44,185 bases of DNA, taken from the IMG/VR virus record IMGVR_UViG_3300045988_018548. One strand, given 5' to 3'. Of the stretch, positions 377-40,132 are shown piece by piece (position 1 is the first letter of the stretch; each line of letters begins with the position of its first letter). A program made the translations under genes and the position numbers. Source of the DNA: a virus (Duplodnaviria > Heunggongvirae > Uroviricota > Caudoviricetes). The notes below the pieces were generated by a model. It searched no databases. It had not been told where the DNA came from and saw nothing but the letters and a program-made list of their open reading frames with translations.

Positions 377-862
377 TCATTTAACAGCCCTCCCGATAGC
401 CTCAGCCTCCTGCCACGGTTTACCGTCGAACAGCGCCAGACGACCTGCTGTACGGCGGCGCAGGCCGAGTAATGGTTTGCCGTTCTGGTTGATGAACAGC
501 GTTAGCTTGGCGCGAAGTATCGCAACATCACCAGATCGCAGTGCCTTACCTGTGCCAGTAGTAGCTGCAATCACGCCAGCACCCGCGTTATATACCAGGT
601 CGCACACTGCATCGAACTGCGCCTGTGCCAGTGAATGGTGTGCTGCGGCATCAACCGCAGCCACGGCCTTAGCCATATCACGATTCAGTAACAGGATGCC
701 TTGCCCCGGCGTGATGGTCTTACCTGGTGTTACGTCCGGCCCGTAGTGACCATAACCAATAGTCAGATACTTCTCGTTCGGCGTAGCACGATACGCAGTA
801 CCACGGAATCCCTCGAACGCGGCGGTGAAATGCAATCCATTATCTGAAATGTTTCGAGACAC
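377..862 (-). CDS. endolysin, phage lysozyme (GH24, P22 gp19 / T4 e-like)
   Basis: 161 aa; FEGFRGTAY...YLTIGYGH lysozyme N-terminal signature; GTG start at 862 preceded by GGAGG. Confidence 0.85.
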   Translation of the reverse strand: MSRNISDNGLHFTAAFEGFRGTAYRATPNEKYLTIGYGHYGPDVTPGKTITPGQGILLLNRDMAKAVAAVDAAAHHSLAQAQFDAVCDLVYNAGAGVIAATTGTGKALRSGDVAILRAKLTLFINQNGKPLLGLRRRTAGRLALFDGKPWQEAEAIGRAVK

Positions 863-1112
863 GCTTATGTCCTCCGTACGACAGCCACGCCTGACGAATC
901 TGACGCAGCGCGACTAATGTGATTAACGTCTCAGGCAACGTTGGTGACACGCTGCCCTGTAACAGGTGGATACATCCGGCGGCGCAGACAATCGCAGTCA
1001 GGATATAGAGCACACGCCCGAATAACCCGTCGTCCACGTGCTCATTATACACGTTGAACAGGGACGAAGCGCCCATTGCCAGCATTACGACAAACCAGAA
1101 TAGCTCAGTCAT
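840..1112 (-). CDS. holin-like small membrane protein (two predicted TM helices)
   Basis: Track ORF 840..1193; likely start ATG at 1112 (MTELFWFVVMLAMG) after GGGAGGA; hydrophobic segments LFWFVVMLAMGASSLF and VLYILTAIVCAAGCIHLL; overlaps endolysin start. Confidence 0.5.
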   Translation of the reverse strand: MTELFWFVVMLAMGASSLFNVYNEHVDDGLFGRVLYILTAIVCAAGCIHLLQGSVSPTLPETLITLVALRQIRQAWLSYGGHKRVSKHFR

Positions 1113-1413
1113 GAGGTCCTCCCGGGCGGGAAATATCGCCACCCGATACGATGCCAGAAAGGCGGGAATAGATAGGCATCCAGAGAATGGCAATGATGAA
1201 TCCGAGGCCAGCTATCTCGCGCTCACCGGTAATACCGAACCATTGAGCGGCAAGAGGCGCACCGAAAATGGCACACGCAAAGCCGGTTAGAAGAAATACC
1301 AGTCCGTCAATCGGCCCGGATATAGACTTTTTATGTTGTCTTAGTCCGACCAATCCACCGACCAGTGCGGCGGCGAGAAGCCACCCCGTCACTGTTTCAG
1401 TAAATTTATCCAA
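1105..1413 (-). CDS. holin/antiholin-like membrane protein (three predicted TM helices)
   Basis: 102 aa with three hydrophobic helices; stop overlaps start of next lysis gene (ATGACTGA). Confidence 0.5.
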   Translation of the reverse strand: MDKFTETVTGWLLAAALVGGLVGLRQHKKSISGPIDGLVFLLTGFACAIFGAPLAAQWFGITGEREIAGLGFIIAILWMPIYSRLSGIVSGGDISRPGGPHD

Positions 1414-1488
1414 GATGAATCCTCCAGGTGCGTATTAAGTATGCAGTAACTGGAGGATACCACGGGTAGGAATTATCCTAATAGTTGT

Positions 1489-1827
1489 TTATTTGTGTCT
1501 CCAGATGTATTGTCGTCTCTGCGGTTTCGTCGGAATATCATCGTACCCCAGCGATTTCCAGTAATTAAATAACCGATTAGCGATTGCTGCACGTTCCTTT
1601 GTTTTAAACTCACCGAGATTCACGGCCTTCCCGTTCTGGAATCCGCAGGCGCGGACTGCTTTGCGTCTGGCTTGAATCTCCGGGTGCAGCGCGTTACGGC
1701 GTCGCTTGTGTATTCTGGTGTTCGCTCTCGGTGAAAGCGGCGCAAGGCCGCTTCGTTTCAGGATGTCAGTTGCAAGGCTCATATTCCGAGAATCTCGCGG
1801 GCCATTTCTTCTGTAACTTTCGAACAA
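1489..1827 (-). CDS. hypothetical basic protein, possible AP2-like DNA-binding domain
   Basis: ORF in leftward accessory cluster; NGKAVNLGEFKTKERAAIANRLF resembles AP2 core by eye only. Confidence 0.3.
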   Translation of the reverse strand: MFESYRRNGPRDSRNMSLATDILKRSGLAPLSPRANTRIHKRRRNALHPEIQARRKAVRACGFQNGKAVNLGEFKTKERAAIANRLFNYWKSLGYDDIPTKPQRRQYIWRHK

Positions 1828-2178
1828 GGTTCGTTAATTACCTGTTCGGCGAATTCACGTAACTTTGCTTCAAGTTTCGCATAGTCTCTGTGGCCAACCC
1901 AGTCACCGTCTGCGTCTTTCTCTAAGTCAATACACCCAGTAACCCAGTCTTCTTTTAAATCGTATCTCTGTGCCATAATCACTTCTCCTGTTTACCAAGT
2001 CGCTTAGGGGAGCAGATAGCGCGTACCTCTGAATCGTTGGGTTTGTCCCCCTGAAACAGGAAGTGCGCATTTTCTGCGGCGCGTGCCGCTGACTGGCACG
2101 CCTCCATCGAGTAAAACGTTTCTGATGCCGCCAGTTGCATCTGGCCCGCGGACAATACCCATATAAATAAGATGCTGG

Positions 2179-2691
2179 TCATTTAAGTTTAGCCCCGCAA
2201 TCCAGACATTTTTTAGTAAACCCCGGCGCGAAGCCTTTACGTAACTGCGCTGTGTTGGCGTGCTTGCACTCATCAGCTTTGGTCACACCGCAATTAATAC
2301 ATACGGCGGGAGCCTTTCCGTTAACTAATCGCCAGTTATGGTGGCATTCCTGCGCGTCTTCTTTCCGGCAACCAGATTGTTCCGGCGGTACAGGCGTCGA
2401 GGTACACCGACAATTTACCGTTGTCCCAGGCACATGTTCACCCACTACATAGCGCTTACCACCATCGATGTACCCACCCTTGCGTATAAGTTTGTAGGCC
2501 TCCGCATCACCTGTTGCTTTGACCAAGGCCAGGTGCAACTCCTTAATCTGTGCCGAAGCGTCGCGTAACTGATTCTTAAGTGACAACACCTCGTGCGCCA
2601 GGTCTTCGCACTGTTGCTTGTACGGGTTGCTATTTACCTGCTGCCGTAGTTGGTCAATCAGCCACTCGAATACTTCGTTTTTGTTACTCAT
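2179..2691 (-). CDS. hypothetical Cys/His-rich protein (coiled-coil N-terminus, zinc-binding-like C-terminus)
   Basis: Track ORF 2179..2718; probable start ATG 2691 after GAGAGGAGAG; C-terminal CRC..C..HH..CINC..C pattern. Confidence 0.4.
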   Translation of the reverse strand: MSNKNEVFEWLIDQLRQQVNSNPYKQQCEDLAHEVLSLKNQLRDASAQIKELHLALVKATGDAEAYKLIRKGGYIDGGKRYVVGEHVPGTTVNCRCTSTPVPPEQSGCRKEDAQECHHNWRLVNGKAPAVCINCGVTKADECKHANTAQLRKGFAPGFTKKCLDCGAKLK

Positions 2692-2710
2692 CTTCTGTCT
2701 CTCCTCTCGC

Positions 2711-2989
2711 TTATTCAACAGCGCCTGTTATTGCGATAAGCCCGGTGTTATCGCGGCGACGATACTTACGAATCACCGTTTTAAGTTCTCCATTGCTACT
2801 CTGATGCCCGAAAGTGACCGGCAACTCTTCTCCTCCTGACATCCCGAACTCAGTGTCCGTCGGTTTGTTCCTCCACCCCTGAATAAACCCATTATTATCG
2901 CGCGTTATGTACCGGTAGTTGTTAGGGAGGGGCAACTCCAGCCCCTCAAAATCAACGGTCACGGTGTAGCTGTTAAAATTCATAGTCAA
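2711..2989 (-). CDS. hypothetical protein
   Basis: 92-aa ORF in same-strand accessory cluster, start overlaps stop of upstream small ORF. Confidence 0.35.
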   Translation of the reverse strand: MTMNFNSYTVTVDFEGLELPLPNNYRYITRDNNGFIQGWRNKPTDTEFGMSGGEELPVTFGHQSSNGELKTVIRKYRRRDNTGLIAITGAVE

Positions 2990-33272: not shown

Positions 33273-34322
33273 TTAAGCACCGACACCAGTTACCAGGAAG
33301 GCAATCGGTACGTGCTTACGGTCAACAACACGATTCCAGTTGGAGGCGTTCGCCAGGTCCTGCCATGAAGCAGAGCGCGGGGTAGTCTCAGTACCGTTAC
33401 CGGTGATTACCGCGCTGGTGAAGCTGTAACCAAACGGATGTAGCAACCAGGTCTTGCGGGTCCACAGGGTTTCAACACCACCGCCGTTGCCGCGAGATGC
33501 TTCGCGCTCGTATTCCAGCGGGTTGGACGGAGAACCTTCACCGTAACCGATAGCGCCGTTGCCGAAGATGATGGAGATGAACTTACGGCTGACGCCGGAG
33601 CCAACTACGGTCATGCTGTCGTCAACAATCACGCGATAGCCCTGGTAGGTGGCGAACATGGTGTTATTGTCGGCGTCACGGATGAAGTCGATAAGCTGCT
33701 GCTTACGTGCCTGCGCATAAACGAAGCTGTGCATAGCAATAGCACCCAGCACTTCACCACCGTTGCCCATCAGCGCATCGCCCATAGTCTGGGTAGCGTC
33801 GATAAACGCGCCGGAGTCGAAGCCCAGAGAAGCAGACACGTCTACAACCATGTCATTCTGCTTGTGGTAATCATCGTCAGCGGCTACGTTGTCGTTGTAC
33901 AGGCCGAGCGCGGTAGCAATCAGACGACGTTGTGCCTGGCGCTGCCAGAAGTTATCCAGACGGGACGCTACGGAGCGCAGCGGCTGCTGGCTGGTCAGTT
34001 CAACAGTCAGGTCAGCCTGTCCAAAGCCTTCGTTCAGGTAGGCTACGCGAACGTCCATCTCACCGGTTTGCACGTTACGCGGGGTAGCGACGTCCTGGTA
34101 TACGTCGTTCGAGTAGTTCGGCTCGATAGAGGTATCAATCGCTTTCCAGTACGGCAGAACAGCTTTGTTAGACGGGCCGTTAGCGATAGCAGCGGCATAC
34201 GGAGTCGGGGTAAGGATACCAGACTGGAAGAACGCAGTTTTTTCTACCGGGTCTTCTGTCATGTAAGACAGAATGACCGATTCTTTACCAGTTACGATGT
34301 CGCCGATAGTAGTAATTGCCAT
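33273..34322 (-). CDS. major capsid protein
   Basis: 349 aa, directly after scaffold gene with TAATG-type overlap. Confidence 0.7.
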   Translation of the reverse strand: MAITTIGDIVTGKESVILSYMTEDPVEKTAFFQSGILTPTPYAAAIANGPSNKAVLPYWKAIDTSIEPNYSNDVYQDVATPRNVQTGEMDVRVAYLNEGFGQADLTVELTSQQPLRSVASRLDNFWQRQAQRRLIATALGLYNDNVAADDDYHKQNDMVVDVSASLGFDSGAFIDATQTMGDALMGNGGEVLGAIAMHSFVYAQARKQQLIDFIRDADNNTMFATYQGYRVIVDDSMTVVGSGVSRKFISIIFGNGAIGYGEGSPSNPLEYEREASRGNGGGVETLWTRKTWLLHPFGYSFTSAVITGNGTETTPRSASWQDLANASNWNRVVDRKHVPIAFLVTGVGA

Positions 34323-35026
34323 TATTTTTTCCTCAGGGCTTTAAGTTGCCGTTCAAATTCGGCAGGGTTCGATTCGTACAGAGCGATACGCTCCGCTTCA
34401 CTCATGTCTTTAAACGCTGGTGCGGCCCCGCCGCCTTTGCTACCGGAAGCCCCGCCGCCGGAAGCTGCATTTGCTTTAATCAAATGCGAAAACGCTTTGT
34501 GTTCGCGCAGGTATTTGCGGAACTGTTCCGGGTCAGTCGTGATTACGTTGCCATCTGCGCCAACAAACTTAGTAACCACATCATCGCCTTCAAACTCAGT
34601 CTTGACGAACGGCGCAAGAATGTCTACTGCTTCCGGGGTGATAAAGTCGCCCGCGAAAGAGCCTAACACCGCTTTACGTTCGCTGCCGAGGATGCGCTCT
34701 GCCATTCTGGAGATGCGACCATCTTTCTCGGCTAACACCGGGTCATACTGGCTACGAATCGTCTTTTCAAACTCGTCCATCTTACCAGCGGCTTTTAACG
34801 CCTCCTGGTGGGCACGCTGCCGTTCTTCTTCGGCCTCTTTTGCTTTACGAGCGGCTTCTTTCTTCTCCGCCAGCAATGCTTCCTGATTGGCCTTAAGCCC
34901 GGCGACTTCTTTCTCAATCAGCGCCTGAACTTCTTCGGCTGTGAACATTTTCGGCGCGTCACCGCCACCAGATTTATCTTCTACCCCAGCTTCTTCCTGG
35001 AACGGATAACGTAAAAAACGATTCAT
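34322..35026 (-). CDS. scaffolding protein
   Basis: Track ORF 34322..35080; start ATG 35026 (MNRFLRYPF); Lys/Glu/Ala-rich coiled-coil composition. Confidence 0.6.
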   Translation of the reverse strand: MNRFLRYPFQEEAGVEDKSGGGDAPKMFTAEEVQALIEKEVAGLKANQEALLAEKKEAARKAKEAEEERQRAHQEALKAAGKMDEFEKTIRSQYDPVLAEKDGRISRMAERILGSERKAVLGSFAGDFITPEAVDILAPFVKTEFEGDDVVTKFVGADGNVITTDPEQFRKYLREHKAFSHLIKANAASGGGASGSKGGGAAPAFKDMSEAERIALYESNPAEFERQLKALRKK

Positions 35027-36260: not shown

Positions 36261-36722
36261 TCATTCTGGTTTAGTGACCTTCGCCGCCTTGCTCACCGCC
36301 TCTACCCCATCGGCATCAGTAACTTTAACGAAGTATTCACCGACCGCATTAACCGTCAGTGACGAGGCCTCTTCCGGGGCGTTTACAACTTCCTTACCGT
36401 CTTTGTACCAGGTCAGCGCGTACGGGGCTTTACCCGCCTTAACTTCAACAGTGATAATTGCGCTGCCGTCCACCAGTTCGGTGCCTTGCGGTTGTACGGA
36501 GAAATACACATCGCCAGCATCGGCCAGATACGGAATTTCATAAAGCATACCTGCCGCGGAGAGTGCGATACCGGTTTTATCCGCGTACGGCATCTCGTCT
36601 ACAGGTGTACCTAGTACACTTTCATCTTCAACGTAGGTTACGTTCTCGCCGGAGCCAGACACACGAGCGTACTGGACTACGCGACGCGACGGCACATCAG
36701 TTACTTTGAAAAAGCCCATCAT
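36261..36722 (-). CDS. Ig-like (Big_2-type) domain protein
   Basis: 153 aa; C-terminal ITVEVKAGKAPYALTWYKDGKEV ... GEYFVKVTDADG; start overlaps stop of head morphogenesis gene (TAATG). Confidence 0.5.
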   Translation of the reverse strand: MMGFFKVTDVPSRRVVQYARVSGSGENVTYVEDESVLGTPVDEMPYADKTGIALSAAGMLYEIPYLADAGDVYFSVQPQGTELVDGSAIITVEVKAGKAPYALTWYKDGKEVVNAPEEASSLTVNAVGEYFVKVTDADGVEAVSKAAKVTKPE

Positions 36723-38614
36723 TAATCCCCTTTCAGATAATCAGCAACACGTTTATCGAGTTCCGCCATCTGCTTAAGCGTGAGCGGATTCCCGAAACCA
36801 TCTACAGATATTACGCGAAACTCTTCCGGTGATATACCGCTGTTACGGAAAATCTTACCGCGAACAGGGCCGAGCGCCTGGTCCTGAAACCACGCAGGTT
36901 GTTGTTTGAGGAACTCATAATAGGTGGTGTCTGCACTTACCTGCATACCACCGTCCGCACCCTTAGCCGCGCGTTTTGCGCCTTTATCGAGGAAGTCGAA
37001 CTCAGAACTGATTACTGGCGCGGTTGTTGAGCGACAATTATGTGCTATAATTCCATTTGCGAGATACCAGTTCTGTTCATTTTCGAGGTTATAAACATGC
37101 CCGCAAAAATCAGCTTCACTAAAGACCAAATCGACAACATCATCAAGCTCTATACCGACGGCATCGGACCAGTTGAAATCGGAAAGATTATCGGCGTTTC
37201 GTGTAACCCAGTCATACGCGTTCTCAGAGAGAACGGCGTTAGTATTCGCGGTGTCAGCGACGCTATGTTTATCAGAATGGCTAAAGCTACTCCCGAGGAG
37301 CGCCTCGCTCTCTCCGCCGCGGCGCATGAAGCTGTCCGAGGGAGAAAGGCCGACCATGCTGAACTGCTTCGCAGAGCCAAAGCCAGAGAGGGAGTCATAA
37401 ATGCGGGAAGCCACTGGGAGTTCCTTGTCAATGATTTGCTTATTCAGTCCGGACTTGACTTTATCCCAGGAAAGGCGGTTGACAAGTACAATCTCGACTT
37501 CGCCGTCGGTTCCGTCGCCGTGGAAGTCTTCGGTGGTGGTTGGGCTTGTACGGACCGCCGCAGGATTGACCGCTACATTAGCCGCACTAAACAAATCGGA
37601 GAACTTGGCTACAACGTTGTGTTCCTTATGCTTGAGAGAGAGCGCAGAGTCCTTAGCGCACACGAGCTTGTCGCCTACATTGAGAAGGCCGGAAGCAACC
37701 CAACCATTGGTAGTCAATACCTGGTGGTTTGGGGTGATAGACAAGGTGCGACCGGACCTTGTAGAGACATAGACTATAGTGCCTTTGTACGCCCGTTTAA
37801 AAATGTTAGAAACCGGACTACCGGTAGATACTACAGTATCCCCAAGTAAGCAATTATGATGGGCCGGAGGCATCGGCCCTTTACCGATTTCCCACGTCAT
37901 CCTGTCTCTGGCTCTGCAAATCGTACTGGTACGGCTGTCCAGCGTTGATACCCACTCGTATTTCTCGATGATGTCGTCGTTCTGGCGGTACGTCTCGTTA
38001 CGGGCTTCGTTGGATACATGAGACAGCGCGGTGCGGATTACTGTAGCCGCGTTACGTTCTGAGATGTCGGCCAGCCCACCAGAGCCTACGACATTCTTAA
38101 CAATCTGCCGTGTGGTTTGACCTTGTACAAAGCCCATCTTAACTCCAGTTACGAGGCGGGCGACTTCGGTTTCACCCCAACCAGACATCAATTTAGTGAA
38201 GTCAACAGGCTTGTCGTTTAACGATAATGGCTGAAAATCGGCGGCGGCCCACACCTGTTCGGCGGTAGGCGTAACAAATTCCGCGTTAACGTTGGCGGTT
38301 AGTGTCTTTACGTTCCACTCAGCCTCGTATGCCGCCAGTTCCTTAAGGTCTTCTGTCAGCTTTGTTTGCCAATCGCCGGTAAGTCCGGTTAGCGCTTCTT
38401 CAAGGTCGAGTAACAGTTTATTCAGTCGCGCAGTGCTCCGCCCGTCATCACCGAATAACAGCACCTGCCGTTTTATTTCATCCCGCATCTCCTTAATGAA
38501 CGGTGCGAGGTCTTTCACCTCACCGGATGCGGTGCGTTGCAGCCATATCTGATGGCTGATGAGTGATGTAAGTAAGCTCATAGTTAAACCCTGTGGTGCT
38601 AAAGTTAATAGCAT
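36722..38614 (-). CDS. head morphogenesis protein (phage Mu F / SPP1 gp7-like) containing an intein
   Basis: 630-aa precursor; exteins join to ...STICRARDRMTWEIGKGPMPPAHHN-CRSTTAP..., matching the H-x-N-C-R signature of this family; located between portal and capsid genes. Confidence 0.75.
   Translation of the reverse strand: MLLTLAPQGLTMSLLTSLISHQIWLQRTASGEVKDLAPFIKEMRDEIKRQVLLFGDDGRSTARLNKLLLDLEEALTGLTGDWQTKLTEDLKELAAYEAEWNVKTLTANVNAEFVTPTAEQVWAAADFQPLSLNDKPVDFTKLMSGWGETEVARLVTGVKMGFVQGQTTRQIVKNVVGSGGLADISERNAATVIRTALSHVSNEARNETYRQNDDIIEKYEWVSTLDSRTSTICRARDRMTWEIGKGPMPPAHHNCLLGDTVVSTGSPVSNIFKRAYKGTIVYVSTRSGRTLSITPNHQVLTTNGWVASGLLNVGDKLVCAKDSALSLKHKEHNVVAKFSDLFSAANVAVNPAAVRTSPTTTEDFHGDGTDGEVEIVLVNRLSWDKVKSGLNKQIIDKELPVASRIYDSLSGFGSAKQFSMVGLSPSDSFMRRGGESEALLGSSFSHSDKHSVADTANTNAVLSENAYDWVTRNADNLSDFNWSDAVGIELDDVVDLVFSEADFCGHVYNLENEQNWYLANGIIAHNCRSTTAPVISSEFDFLDKGAKRAAKGADGGMQVSADTTYYEFLKQQPAWFQDQALGPVRGKIFRNSGISPEEFRVISVDGFGNPLTLKQMAELDKRVADYLKGD
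37024..37051 (+). promoter_or_regulatory. extended -10 promoter (TTGTTG-N16-TGcTATAAT) inside the intein, plus-strand
   Basis: Perfect TATAAT at 37046..37051 with TG at 37043..37044; 45 bp upstream of GAGGT RBS (37085..37089) and ATG 37097. Confidence 0.45.
37037..37852 (-). other. intein (272 aa, Hint splicing domain) within the head morphogenesis gene
   Basis: Begins CLLGDTVV (block A), TPNHQVLT (block B), ends VYNLENEQNWYLANGIIAHN followed by Cys (blocks F/G); no in-frame LAGLIDADG or HNH module seen. Confidence 0.8.
37097..37849 (+). CDS. HTH + DUF559/Vsr-like (PD-(D/E)xK-fold) endonuclease-like protein, encoded antisense within the intein
   Basis: Track ORF 37040..37849, start revised to ATG 37097 with GAGGT RBS; N-terminal HTH-like GPVEIGKIIGVSCNPVIRVLRENG; core YNLDFAVGSVAVEVFGGGW ... 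DRRRIDRYISRTKQIGELGYNVVFL resembles DUF559; balanced K/E/D/I composition unlike shadow ORFs. Caveat: same codon register as the minus-strand gene. Confidence 0.5.
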   Translation: MPAKISFTKDQIDNIIKLYTDGIGPVEIGKIIGVSCNPVIRVLRENGVSIRGVSDAMFIRMAKATPEERLALSAAAHEAVRGRKADHAELLRRAKAREGVINAGSHWEFLVNDLLIQSGLDFIPGKAVDKYNLDFAVGSVAVEVFGGGWACTDRRRIDRYISRTKQIGELGYNVVFLMLERERRVLSAHELVAYIEKAGSNPTIGSQYLVVWGDRQGATGPCRDIDYSAFVRPFKNVRNRTTGRYYSIPK

Positions 38615-38624
38615 ACTATAAGAA

Positions 38625-38640
38625 AGCCCCTTTCGGGGCT
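38625..38640 (-). terminator. stem-loop agcccc-tttc-ggggct, U-rich on minus strand (possible attenuator between portal and head genes)
   Basis: Hairpin with A-run on plus-strand 5' side. Confidence 0.4.
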
Positions 38641-38650
38641 ATATGTGAAC

Positions 38651-40132
38651 TTACGGCTGAGTGGTGTCCTGTTGTTGCGCCGACTGCGGAATCTCTCCCG
38701 CCACCTGAGCAACAGCACCCAACGGCAGAGGTGCGTCTTCGATAGCGTTCTGGATATCCTCGTCTGTCCAGTCAGTTACCCCGGCCTTGCGCAACGCAGC
38801 ATAGTAGGCCGTAGCCGGTAACAGGCCTGCGTTAATATCCGCCATCCACTGAGCGCGGTCCTGAGCTGTCATAGGTTGCAGGAAGAACTCCATATTCAGC
38901 TTGAACTCAATCTCTGTGTCTTCGCGCAACCCTAGCATCGCAGCTACCCAGCGCAACGCATCTGTATACGCCATACTTACGTTACGTGCGATTGTCGCCA
39001 TAACTGAGGTGTCAGCGCCGCGTTGCAGTCGGGCAGATTCAGCGGTGATTTGCTGCGTCGGGGTAATAAGCTGCGCACCAATCTGGATGGCCTGATTCTC
39101 TTTATCCAGCATGTTCTGCTTGGCGAGGTTGTTCTCGCCGGCCTGAACCAGAAACGCATTGCCGCCGTAACCGATGTTATGACCTGAACGCGACCCCATG
39201 CGCACGCCGTGTGGGTTAGCTTCTTTCCACTGTTCCATGCTCATGTTCTCGCCCGGGGCAATGAACAGAGTGGGCTGGCCTACAACGAAGCTGGACTCCT
39301 CATTGTCCGCGCTGTTGCGGAAATGTCCGATATTGAGCTCAGCCAACGGTAGCAAAGGCGCATCGTCGATGGTTGCGTCGTTGTTGCTCGCCCCAATGAA
39401 CGTGAAGGGGATTTTGCCGCGCAACTGTTCGCCAAGTTCCGGGAATATTTCGATTACTTCACCCTGAGCACCACCTCCGGCATCGAAGCGGTAAATGCGC
39501 TGGCGGTAGCGCCCGTCAATCAAATCGAGAACGCGATACTGCTCACCGAACTTTGTTTCGAACTCTGCACCCGGTTCTGAGTATTCCCATACTTCGCGCA
39601 ACACGACCATTGTCACGCGGTTAACTGAACCAACGCGAGTTAGTCGCCAGTTGATGATGTTCTCTGCGGTATAGAAAGCGATGACCGGGTTTAGTAATCC
39701 CGCGTTCTGTTCTGCCGCCGTTGCCGCGGCTGTCTCCGGGGCGTCCACCAGCAACCCGCCACGACCAACCGAGTCAATCTCCATTAGCGTATCCTGCGCG
39801 TGCTGCCACAGCCCGACACCAGAACCATCGGCGTTACGTAACAGGTACTCCAGTTCAGGCGGAATAATCTGTTCAGGGTCTTTGCGCATCACCGACCCCA
39901 CCATCCCCGCCAGGGTACGTTTAGTGAAGTTGTAGCAGATAGCACCATTCTCGTATTCTTCCTGGCGCTGCGCCGCGTAGGCCGGGTCGGGTTCGTTCTT
40001 CCCGACGTTGCGCAGATAGCGAATAAGGTCACCTTCCAGCGCGTGGCGTACCTTCTGCCATTTATTGAAGTGATGCAGCCATTCCCGGTGTTTTGTCTTA
40101 ACACCCTGATTCTGACCGTTCATTGTTAACAT
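38651..40132 (-). CDS. portal protein
   Basis: 493 aa, immediately downstream of large terminase, acidic C-terminus; assigned mainly by position and size. Confidence 0.65.
   Translation of the reverse strand: MLTMNGQNQGVKTKHREWLHHFNKWQKVRHALEGDLIRYLRNVGKNEPDPAYAAQRQEEYENGAICYNFTKRTLAGMVGSVMRKDPEQIIPPELEYLLRNADGSGVGLWQHAQDTLMEIDSVGRGGLLVDAPETAAATAAEQNAGLLNPVIAFYTAENIINWRLTRVGSVNRVTMVVLREVWEYSEPGAEFETKFGEQYRVLDLIDGRYRQRIYRFDAGGGAQGEVIEIFPELGEQLRGKIPFTFIGASNNDATIDDAPLLPLAELNIGHFRNSADNEESSFVVGQPTLFIAPGENMSMEQWKEANPHGVRMGSRSGHNIGYGGNAFLVQAGENNLAKQNMLDKENQAIQIGAQLITPTQQITAESARLQRGADTSVMATIARNVSMAYTDALRWVAAMLGLREDTEIEFKLNMEFFLQPMTAQDRAQWMADINAGLLPATAYYAALRKAGVTDWTDEDIQNAIEDAPLPLGAVAQVAGEIPQSAQQQDTTQP

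Follow-up and report, generated by a model that had tools for sequence, protein, structure and literature searches.

Homing endonuclease genes that lie on the strand opposite an intein have been described before, and we report here a further case from a phage of enterobacteria. The stretch of DNA we analyzed, hereafter the window, is the 44,185-nucleotide IMG/VR virus record IMGVR_UViG_3300045988_018548, which is a Kagunavirus-like siphophage. Its minus strand contains an open reading frame (ORF) for a MuF/SPP1-gp7-like head morphogenesis protein that is interrupted by an intein, and the plus strand of this intein appears to encode a Vsr-like homing endonuclease.

The closest described systems are the "anti-sense VSR-like HENs" (homing endonucleases) that Gosselin, Arsenault and Gogarten reported in full inteins of minor capsid proteins from actinobacteriophages (bioRxiv 10.1101/2025.01.02.630785), where HHpred matched the nuclease to 3R3P. 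As far as the retrieved passages of that preprint go, its inteins resemble the one in the window in having a MuF or minor capsid host, an unsplit intein, an opposite-strand endonuclease between the splicing blocks, a nuclease that matches 3R3P, an unstructured sense center and signs of horizontal transfer. Three Gordonia phages of that survey (Vivi2, Angelicage and Affeca) are also direct tblastn matches of the antisense protein of the window. By contrast, the survey as described there covers PhagesDB only, whereas the present case is from Guernseyvirinae of E. coli and Salmonella, with relatives beyond this subfamily in Vibrio, Klebsiella, Aggregatibacter, Edwardsiella, Cronobacter and Idiomarinaceae phages and in marine metagenomes. 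Strand-specific selection, codon register, promoter and ribosome binding do not appear in the passages of the preprint retrieved by term search. Going by the same passages, the lack of the catalytic His in the clade of the window is a further difference.

Other known systems share only part of this arrangement. Vsr-like endonuclease genes have been found between the halves of split inteins, in the orientation of the host gene, and the authors stated that this type was unknown inside inteins (Dassa et al., 2009; PMC2677866). Known members of the EDxHD family, to which the characterized enzyme I-Bth0305I belongs (Taylor et al., 2011; PMC3239194), occur in group I introns or "fractured genes", whereas the gene in the window lies opposite an intein that is unbroken. 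The endonuclease in the window also differs in using a resolvase-type helix-turn-helix (HTH) rather than NUMOD as its DNA-binding module and in having Ala at the position equivalent to His213 of I-Bth0305I. Antisense LAGLIDADG endonucleases in inteins are traced, in the part of the literature cited by the preprint, back to Gorbalenya (1998) and the DnaX intein of Synechocystis (bioRxiv 10.1101/2025.01.02.630785). As cited there, these also have an endonuclease ORF opposite a contiguous intein but differ in nuclease type (LAGLIDADG versus Vsr-like) and host (bacterial chromosomal genes versus a phage head gene). Thus, the architecture is already known, but rare, and the window is a new example in enterobacterial phages. 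What is added here is evidence for a broad, old and selected lineage, and a specific account of the way in which two genes occupy the same bases.

The intein and its host gene

A sequence-only reading of the window had proposed that an intein interrupts the H-x-N-C-R motif of the MuF-like protein, and this proposal is borne out by profile matches, a complete set of catalytic residues, intein-free alleles and the annotation of a close relative. The host ORF (36722..38614, minus strand) is in the ORF list with the 630 amino acids that had been reported for it, counted from the first ATG. Its N-extein matches PF04233 Phage_Mu_F (38.2 bits versus a cut-off of 29.6), and the ORF scores 38.7 against TIGR01641, just below the cut-off of 39.65. 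Translation of 37037..37852 (minus strand) gives 272 residues that begin with CLLGDTVV, have TPNHQVLT at codons 40-47 and end with NGIIAHN, with Cys as the next residue. When this segment is removed, the protein reads ...KGPMPPAHHN/CRSTTAPV... (a slash marks the junction) and is 358 amino acids long from the first ATG. The segment, its motifs and the joined product are as the sequence-only reading had them.

Profile searching, which that reading had named as a check, placed all three intein models above cut-off: PF14890 Intein_splicing (42.8 bits versus 35.8), TIGR01445 (25.4 versus 24.5) and TIGR01443 (18.8 versus 15.6). The intein call is far beyond chance expectation and is statistically solid. 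The features required of a class-1 intein are seen in the sequence, with a Cys1 nucleophile, TPNH (the T-x-x-H motif) at codons 40-43 of Block B, and IIAHN/C, the terminal His-Asn followed by Cys at +1. Across an alignment of 54 diverse loci, Cys1, T-x-N-H of Block B and the terminal N/C are invariant or nearly so. The intein has 272 codons, without insertions or deletions, in the window and in ten Guernseyvirinae relatives.

Alleles that lack the intein provide a second line of support. A 600-nucleotide probe made from the joined exteins was matched colinearly by 407 phage records, which bears on another of the checks that had been named, a comparison with intein-free homologues. For example, the empty site of phage XY2 reads KGPMPPAHPN/CRSTTAPVIS, and the DNA of the XY2/K1H allele is ...CCAGCCCATCCTAAT/TGCCGAAGTACC... 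at this point. The intein is sporadic in its presence, and the intein-free alleles are colinear over the junction. In Escherichia phage Snoke (Kagunavirus; MK931441), which has 94% DNA identity to the window, an intein of 272-273 residues occupies the same insertion site, and GenBank annotates gp004 as an "intein-containing capsid morphogenesis protein". The Snoke record differs in that no opposite-strand gene is annotated. Together, these data support a Hint-domain class-1 intein in the conserved H-x-N/C-R motif of the MuF-like protein, as judged from sequence.

Two other kinds of interruption were considered and rejected. For a group I intron, an Rfam search of 36500..38800 gave nothing at E<=1, and the sense frame is an open one that carries Hint blocks. 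A fractured gene with a split intein does not fit a single unbroken 630-amino-acid ORF, nor does it fit the 79 of 80 loci in which the in-register frame is open.

To gauge selection on each strand, ratios of nonsynonymous to synonymous substitution rates (dN/dS) were calculated by the Nei-Gojobori method on nine pairs among the window and the ten relatives. In the sense frame, the ratio is 0.03-0.16 for the N-extein (37853..38581, ending ...PMPPAHHN) and 0.03-0.05 for the C-extein (36722..37036 including the stop codon, beginning CRSTTAP), so that the exteins together range over 0.03-0.16; in the antisense frame their apparent ratio is above 1. Both ends of the intein are also conserved as protein (sense dN/dS of 0.03-0.42), and the antisense frame is not selected there. 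The N-terminal Hint splicing region (codons 1-70; 37643..37852) holds Block A (37829..37852) and Block B (37712..37735) and has a sense dN/dS of 0.07-0.42. The C-terminal Hint splicing region (codons 231-272; 37037..37162) holds Block F (HVYNLE, 37082..37099) and Block G (NGIIAHN, 37037..37057), has a sense dN/dS of 0.03-0.24, and is better conserved than any other part of the element at each of the three codon positions. AlphaFold2 (AF2) models of the sense polypeptide have pLDDT scores (predicted local distance difference test) of 67-86 at the Hint ends (73-86 for residues 21-60) versus 22-38 for residues 69-225.

The start of the host gene is likely to be internal to the ORF. The 630-amino-acid frame begins 11 codons (38582..38614) upstream of the start that is common to all 619-amino-acid homologues. 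Protein database forms of the MuF relatives are 619 amino acids long with the intein and 347 without it, and because of this the second Met at 38581, which is preceded by AGGG and gives 619 amino acids, is probably the true start rather than 38614. The window also has His two residues before the junction (37856..37858; ...PPAHHN/C), where Pro is found in each of the ten relatives and in the empty alleles examined (...PPAHPN/C). This replacement of Pro by His could alter how efficiently the intein splices or how well the endonuclease recognizes its target. Among GenBank records of the MuF gene with its intein, which include MZ560703, OQ507916 and NC_073183, several from Salmonella phages label it "NAD+--asparagine ADP-ribosyltransferase" and others call it a hypothetical, structural or tail protein.

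The opposite strand of the intein

The center of the intein (codons 71-230; 37163..37642, minus strand) is a different matter. Its sense frame is open, unselected and predicted to be unstructured, and a Pfam search of it returned no match. This agrees with the earlier observation that it has no LAGLIDADG or HNH signature. Sense dN/dS in codons 71-230 is 1.0-6.1 versus 0.04-0.16 for the antisense frame in all nine pairs, and a running tally of the variable sites at each codon position shows that codon periodicity flips to sense position 1 over codons ~81-230. At each level of divergence, the antisense protein is more conserved in identity than the sense protein. Selection therefore switches strand in the center: the other strand carries a gene kept by strong purifying selection, and the center is its mirror. 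The sequence-only reading had said that this center looks like "antisense-derived filler". The antisense origin holds, but mere filler does not, since the antisense strand carries a selected gene for a Vsr-like endonuclease.

The plus-strand open frame has 269 codons (37040..37849) and is nearly coextensive with the intein. Within it, the antisense homing endonuclease gene (37097..37849, plus strand) encodes 250 amino acids followed by TAA and matches the intein codon for codon in register, with sense position 1 opposite antisense position 3. In this register, only TTA, CTA and TCA codons of the nuclease gene can give rise to sense stops, so the sense frame remains open provided that the gene lacks them; none occurs among its 17 Leu and 14 Ser codons (P~0.001, given the codon usage of the phage itself). 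Salmonella phages vB_STM-ZS and TS6 have a stop a short distance upstream of the ATG of MPAKISF (37097), which fixes the start there. In these two phages, the Leu codon of Block F is CTA, so that an antisense TAG stands five codons ahead of the ATG and the Shine-Dalgarno sequence is weakened to TAGG. This change suggests lower endonuclease expression in their lineage.

Signals for expression of this gene seem to be written into the splicing motifs. The endonuclease ATG is the complement of the His codon of Block F. A Shine-Dalgarno sequence, GAGG (37085..37088, plus strand), lies 8 nucleotides before it and corresponds in reverse complement to Asn-Leu (AAC CTC) of the same block. Farther upstream is a candidate extended -10 element, TGCTATAAT (37043..37051, plus strand), which is 45 nucleotides from the ATG and is the reverse complement of Ile-Ile-Ala in Block G; its TATAAT is retained in 10 of 11 close relatives. 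Codon choice over a wider range of phages shows the same pattern. The His of Block F is CAT, which mirrors the ATG, in 37 of 43 diverse loci (background 35%; P=7e-12). In the same set, the Leu of Block F is CTC in 27 loci, with CTT in another 11 (background 27%; P=7e-7); the mirror images of these codons are GAGG and AAGG. For Block G, Ile-Ile is ATT-ATA, the mirror of TATAAT, in 15 of 20 diverse loci versus an expectation of 5.6% (P=2e-15), where the enrichment was judged against synonymous expectation since Ile-Ile codons are AT-rich. TATAAT is always 45 nucleotides ahead of the ATG. The pattern is meaningful because synonymous sites between clades are saturated.

On its own, the sequence of the antisense protein has only weak matches, to HTH_7 and REase_MTES_1575, and phmmer of this single sequence against the PDB returned spurious matches to designed repeats; a family profile was needed. 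The profile matches the catalytic domain of I-Bth0305I (3r3p_A; E=8.1e-8, profile positions 157-240), a DUF559 structure (3hrl; 1.4e-4), and the resolvase HTH structures 1res and 1gdt. A resolvase-type HTH module is assigned to residues 8-46 (37118..37234, plus strand), with HTH_7 matching 13 and HTH_23 matching 12 of the 26 family members and with helices at residues 9-20, 25-32 and 36-45 in the AF2 model. The Vsr-like/EDxHD-type nuclease domain spans residues ~100-200 (37394..37696, plus strand). Within the alignment of the 26 members, E108 (37418-20), Y131, D134 (37496-8) and E143 (37523-5) are invariant and R163 is nearly so. D134 aligns with the metal-binding D196 of I-Bth0305I and E143 with the Glu of AIEV. 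Mean pLDDT of the antisense protein is 83, and the AF2 model matches the Vsr-type nuclease fold. These results support the idea that the antisense protein is a Vsr-like homing endonuclease and that the intein is not endonuclease-less, with its endonuclease encoded backwards.

The C-terminal tail of the protein, residues ~183-250 (37643..37849, plus strand), overlaps the N-terminal Hint blocks. It is conserved in the clade as PF.NVR..TGRY.S.P[KR] and is modeled by AF2 as beta-strands with a pLDDT of 68-82. It is either functional or a read-through to the first stop, which is the mirror of the TTA codon for Leu2.

Comparison of the window with the Jerseyviruses LP31, LSPA1, BPS11Q3 and sidste gives an indication of mobility. 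The intein is 94-96% identical, whereas the flanking 300 nucleotides of each extein are 72-90% identical, and mean pairwise identity falls sharply at both intein junctions. Similarly, synonymous divergence (dS) is 1.0-1.8 in the exteins versus 0.17-0.22 in the intein center. As far as sequence can tell, this contrast indicates recent horizontal spread, of which it is the expected footprint under homing.

Proposed mechanism and alternative explanations

We propose that the locus is a two-strand selfish element, a MuF intein with an antisense Vsr-like homing endonuclease, and we put the probability of this at roughly 0.8. In this model, the ends of the intein would form the Hint splicing domain on the sense strand and the ~160 codons between them would serve only as an open, unstructured linker. 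The precursor would be translated and the intein would splice out to restore MuF, as intact catalytic residues and purifying selection suggest. From the opposite strand, the 250-amino-acid HTH and Vsr-like (EDxHD-family) nuclease would be produced on its own rather than as a domain of the intein. Through synonymous positions in Blocks F (HVYNLE) and G (NGIIAHN), the motifs for splicing and the signals for nuclease expression would use the same bases. Upon co-infection, the endonuclease would presumably cut intein-free MuF alleles, and repair would copy the whole unit in. Homing of this kind would leave the intein near-identical among phages that have far more divergent exteins.

A more detailed form of this model makes several claims jointly. 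In it, the start codon, ribosome-binding site and extended -10 of the endonuclease would lie in selected synonymous codons of Blocks F and G, the sense frame would be open purely through avoidance of three codons, and the enterobacterial clade would cleave without the canonical His. The element would also be no transient accident but an ancient, stable lineage dedicated to one MuF site in phages whose hosts are Proteobacteria, Actinobacteria and marine organisms. That all of these hold together is about an even bet.

Several points weigh against the proposal. Splicing, the antisense transcript, its translation and cleavage are all inferred. In-register antisense frames are open by chance elsewhere in this phage, over up to 293 codons, so openness alone proves nothing. 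The last ~60 endonuclease residues overlap the N-terminal Hint region, and selection signals are mixed there. The loci used for codon bias are not phylogenetically independent and the P values given above are overstated. A generic promoter scan found no plus-strand sigma-70 site upstream of the ATG; it missed the candidate because its -35 threshold excludes extended -10 promoters. The -35 of the TATAAT promoter is weak, and the promoter is a consensus match. Lastly, the essential His213 of I-Bth0305I corresponds to Ala150 in the window (37544-6; GGGWA, after Trp149). This position is Ala or Ser across the whole clade of the window, and His (GGxWH) is kept only in more distant family members (P0009-P0013). 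The equivalent of D222 is not clearly conserved, with D158 one residue out of register in a column that varies among D, N, S and A. Because the clade lacks the catalytic His of the family, nuclease activity is inferred, and doubt falls on the catalytic mechanism and even on activity itself.

The last of these points underlies the most serious rival, an inactive or repurposed His-less nuclease. The antisense protein could be real and selected without being an active homing endonuclease in the enterobacterial clade, acting instead by DNA binding, as a regulator or in competitor exclusion, or as a nickase with altered chemistry. Replacement of the His213 general base by A150 (Ala or Ser in the clade), the D222 equivalent, which is not clearly conserved, and the well conserved HTH region all fit this. 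They have to be set against E108, D134 and E143, whose invariance extends to the clade of the window and is unexpected in a dead active site. Antisense dN/dS is also lowest across the nuclease domain, and an intein that is 94-96% identical across phages with exteins at 72-84% identity implies ongoing mobility, which needs a nuclease. We therefore regard this rival as unlikely.

A good deal less likely is that the insert does not splice but is a tolerated surface loop of MuF with Hint-like ends that are relics. Insertions of the ShiLan type, in which phage methylases carry out-of-frame endonucleases without splicing, have been described (PMC11855218), and the predicted lack of structure in the center would suit such a loop. 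This is hard to reconcile with intact class-1 catalytic residues, with Cys1, T-x-N-H and N/C invariant in 54 diverse loci, with purifying selection on the sense frame of the Hint ends (0.03-0.42), or with Pfam and TIGRFAM matches above cut-off. The insertion also lies within the most conserved MuF motif. The idea with the slightest chance of all is that the plus-strand ORF is a shadow of constraint on the sense intein, possibly on a decayed in-frame endonuclease domain. Significant tblastn matches are obtained from both frames, and chance open frames in this register are common here (up to 293 codons). However, substitutions in the center fall mostly at the antisense third position and sense dN/dS is at least 1, the opposite of what a shadow ORF predicts. 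A known nuclease fold is confidently predicted for the antisense protein and none for the sense center, and a homologue is free-standing, without an opposite Hint, in Acinetobacter phage IME285. This explanation is already contradicted.

The longest of these open frames deserves a separate comment. A 385-amino-acid plus-strand ORF (33729..34886) lies opposite minus-strand ORFs of 349 and 252 amino acids (putative capsid/scaffold genes) and includes the 293-codon in-register open stretch. We set it aside; its translation is of low complexity and rich in Ser, Arg and Ala, and it looks like a chance shadow ORF.

Distribution among phages and meaning

Searching by tblastn with the antisense protein retrieved 119 phage records. 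The match lies opposite a MuF or head gene in Vibrio, Gordonia, Klebsiella, Aggregatibacter, Cronobacter, Idiomarinaceae and Edwardsiella phages and in a second E. coli phage, and ten distant phages and a TARA ocean contig have the same register (register 0) with both strands open. A scan of IMG/VR gave 457 stretches, and openness was judged on the best 80 loci. In 79 of these 80, the in-register opposite frame is free of stops over the nuclease gene, whereas the other two opposite-strand frames have 3-43 stops. Pfam searches of non-redundant host ORFs found Intein_splicing in 47 of 54 and MuF-type families in 35 of 54. By contrast, a database of 5.8 billion proteins holds only 14 members of the antisense family, since an ORF nested in a longer one on the opposite strand is seldom predicted by gene callers. 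Among the records inspected, an intein is named only in Snoke and KMB36, and the antisense ORF is called only in PK1, as a "hypothetical protein". Two apparent departures were rejected as such: the break in the MuF ORF of the TARA contig, which resembled a split intein, consists of scaffold N-gaps, and ~1 kb of extra sequence in the match from phage UPWr_S5 lies outside MuF.

Two relatives show other arrangements. In a second Kagunavirus, Escherichia phage vB-Eco-KMB36 (OR525703; locus 862..2832), the same MuF gene has an intein at a different site, ...AIVKN/CRARD, ~22 residues upstream of the H-x-N/C-R site of the window, with Cys-Arg following both sites. This intein also has an antisense, in-register Vsr-like endonuclease, which is 24% identical to that of the window. 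In Acinetobacter phage vB_AbaM_IME285 (MH853786), the endonuclease homologue is a free-standing annotated gene that is convergent with a short MuF gene (455..1348, plus strand, and 1342..2118, minus strand), the two overlapping by 7 nucleotides at their 3' ends. The short MuF gene stops just after a ...CKCR motif. This arrangement may represent a stage, before or after the intein, in the same association between endonuclease and target.

These observations mean that an intein that seems to lack an endonuclease can hide one on its other strand. Annotators miss such genes nearly always, as the 14 database proteins versus 457 viral loci indicate, and for phage-therapy genomes the present case draws attention to a nuclease gene that has gone unannotated within a structural gene. 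Natural alleles with and without the intein occur in phages of E. coli and Salmonella that are easily grown (Kagunavirus and Jerseyvirus), which makes this a tractable system. It bears on the way in which endonuclease genes that stood alone become part of inteins (the "splicing-first" model), on how two genes share codons on opposite strands, and on how well inteins tolerate an unselected linker of ~160 residues.

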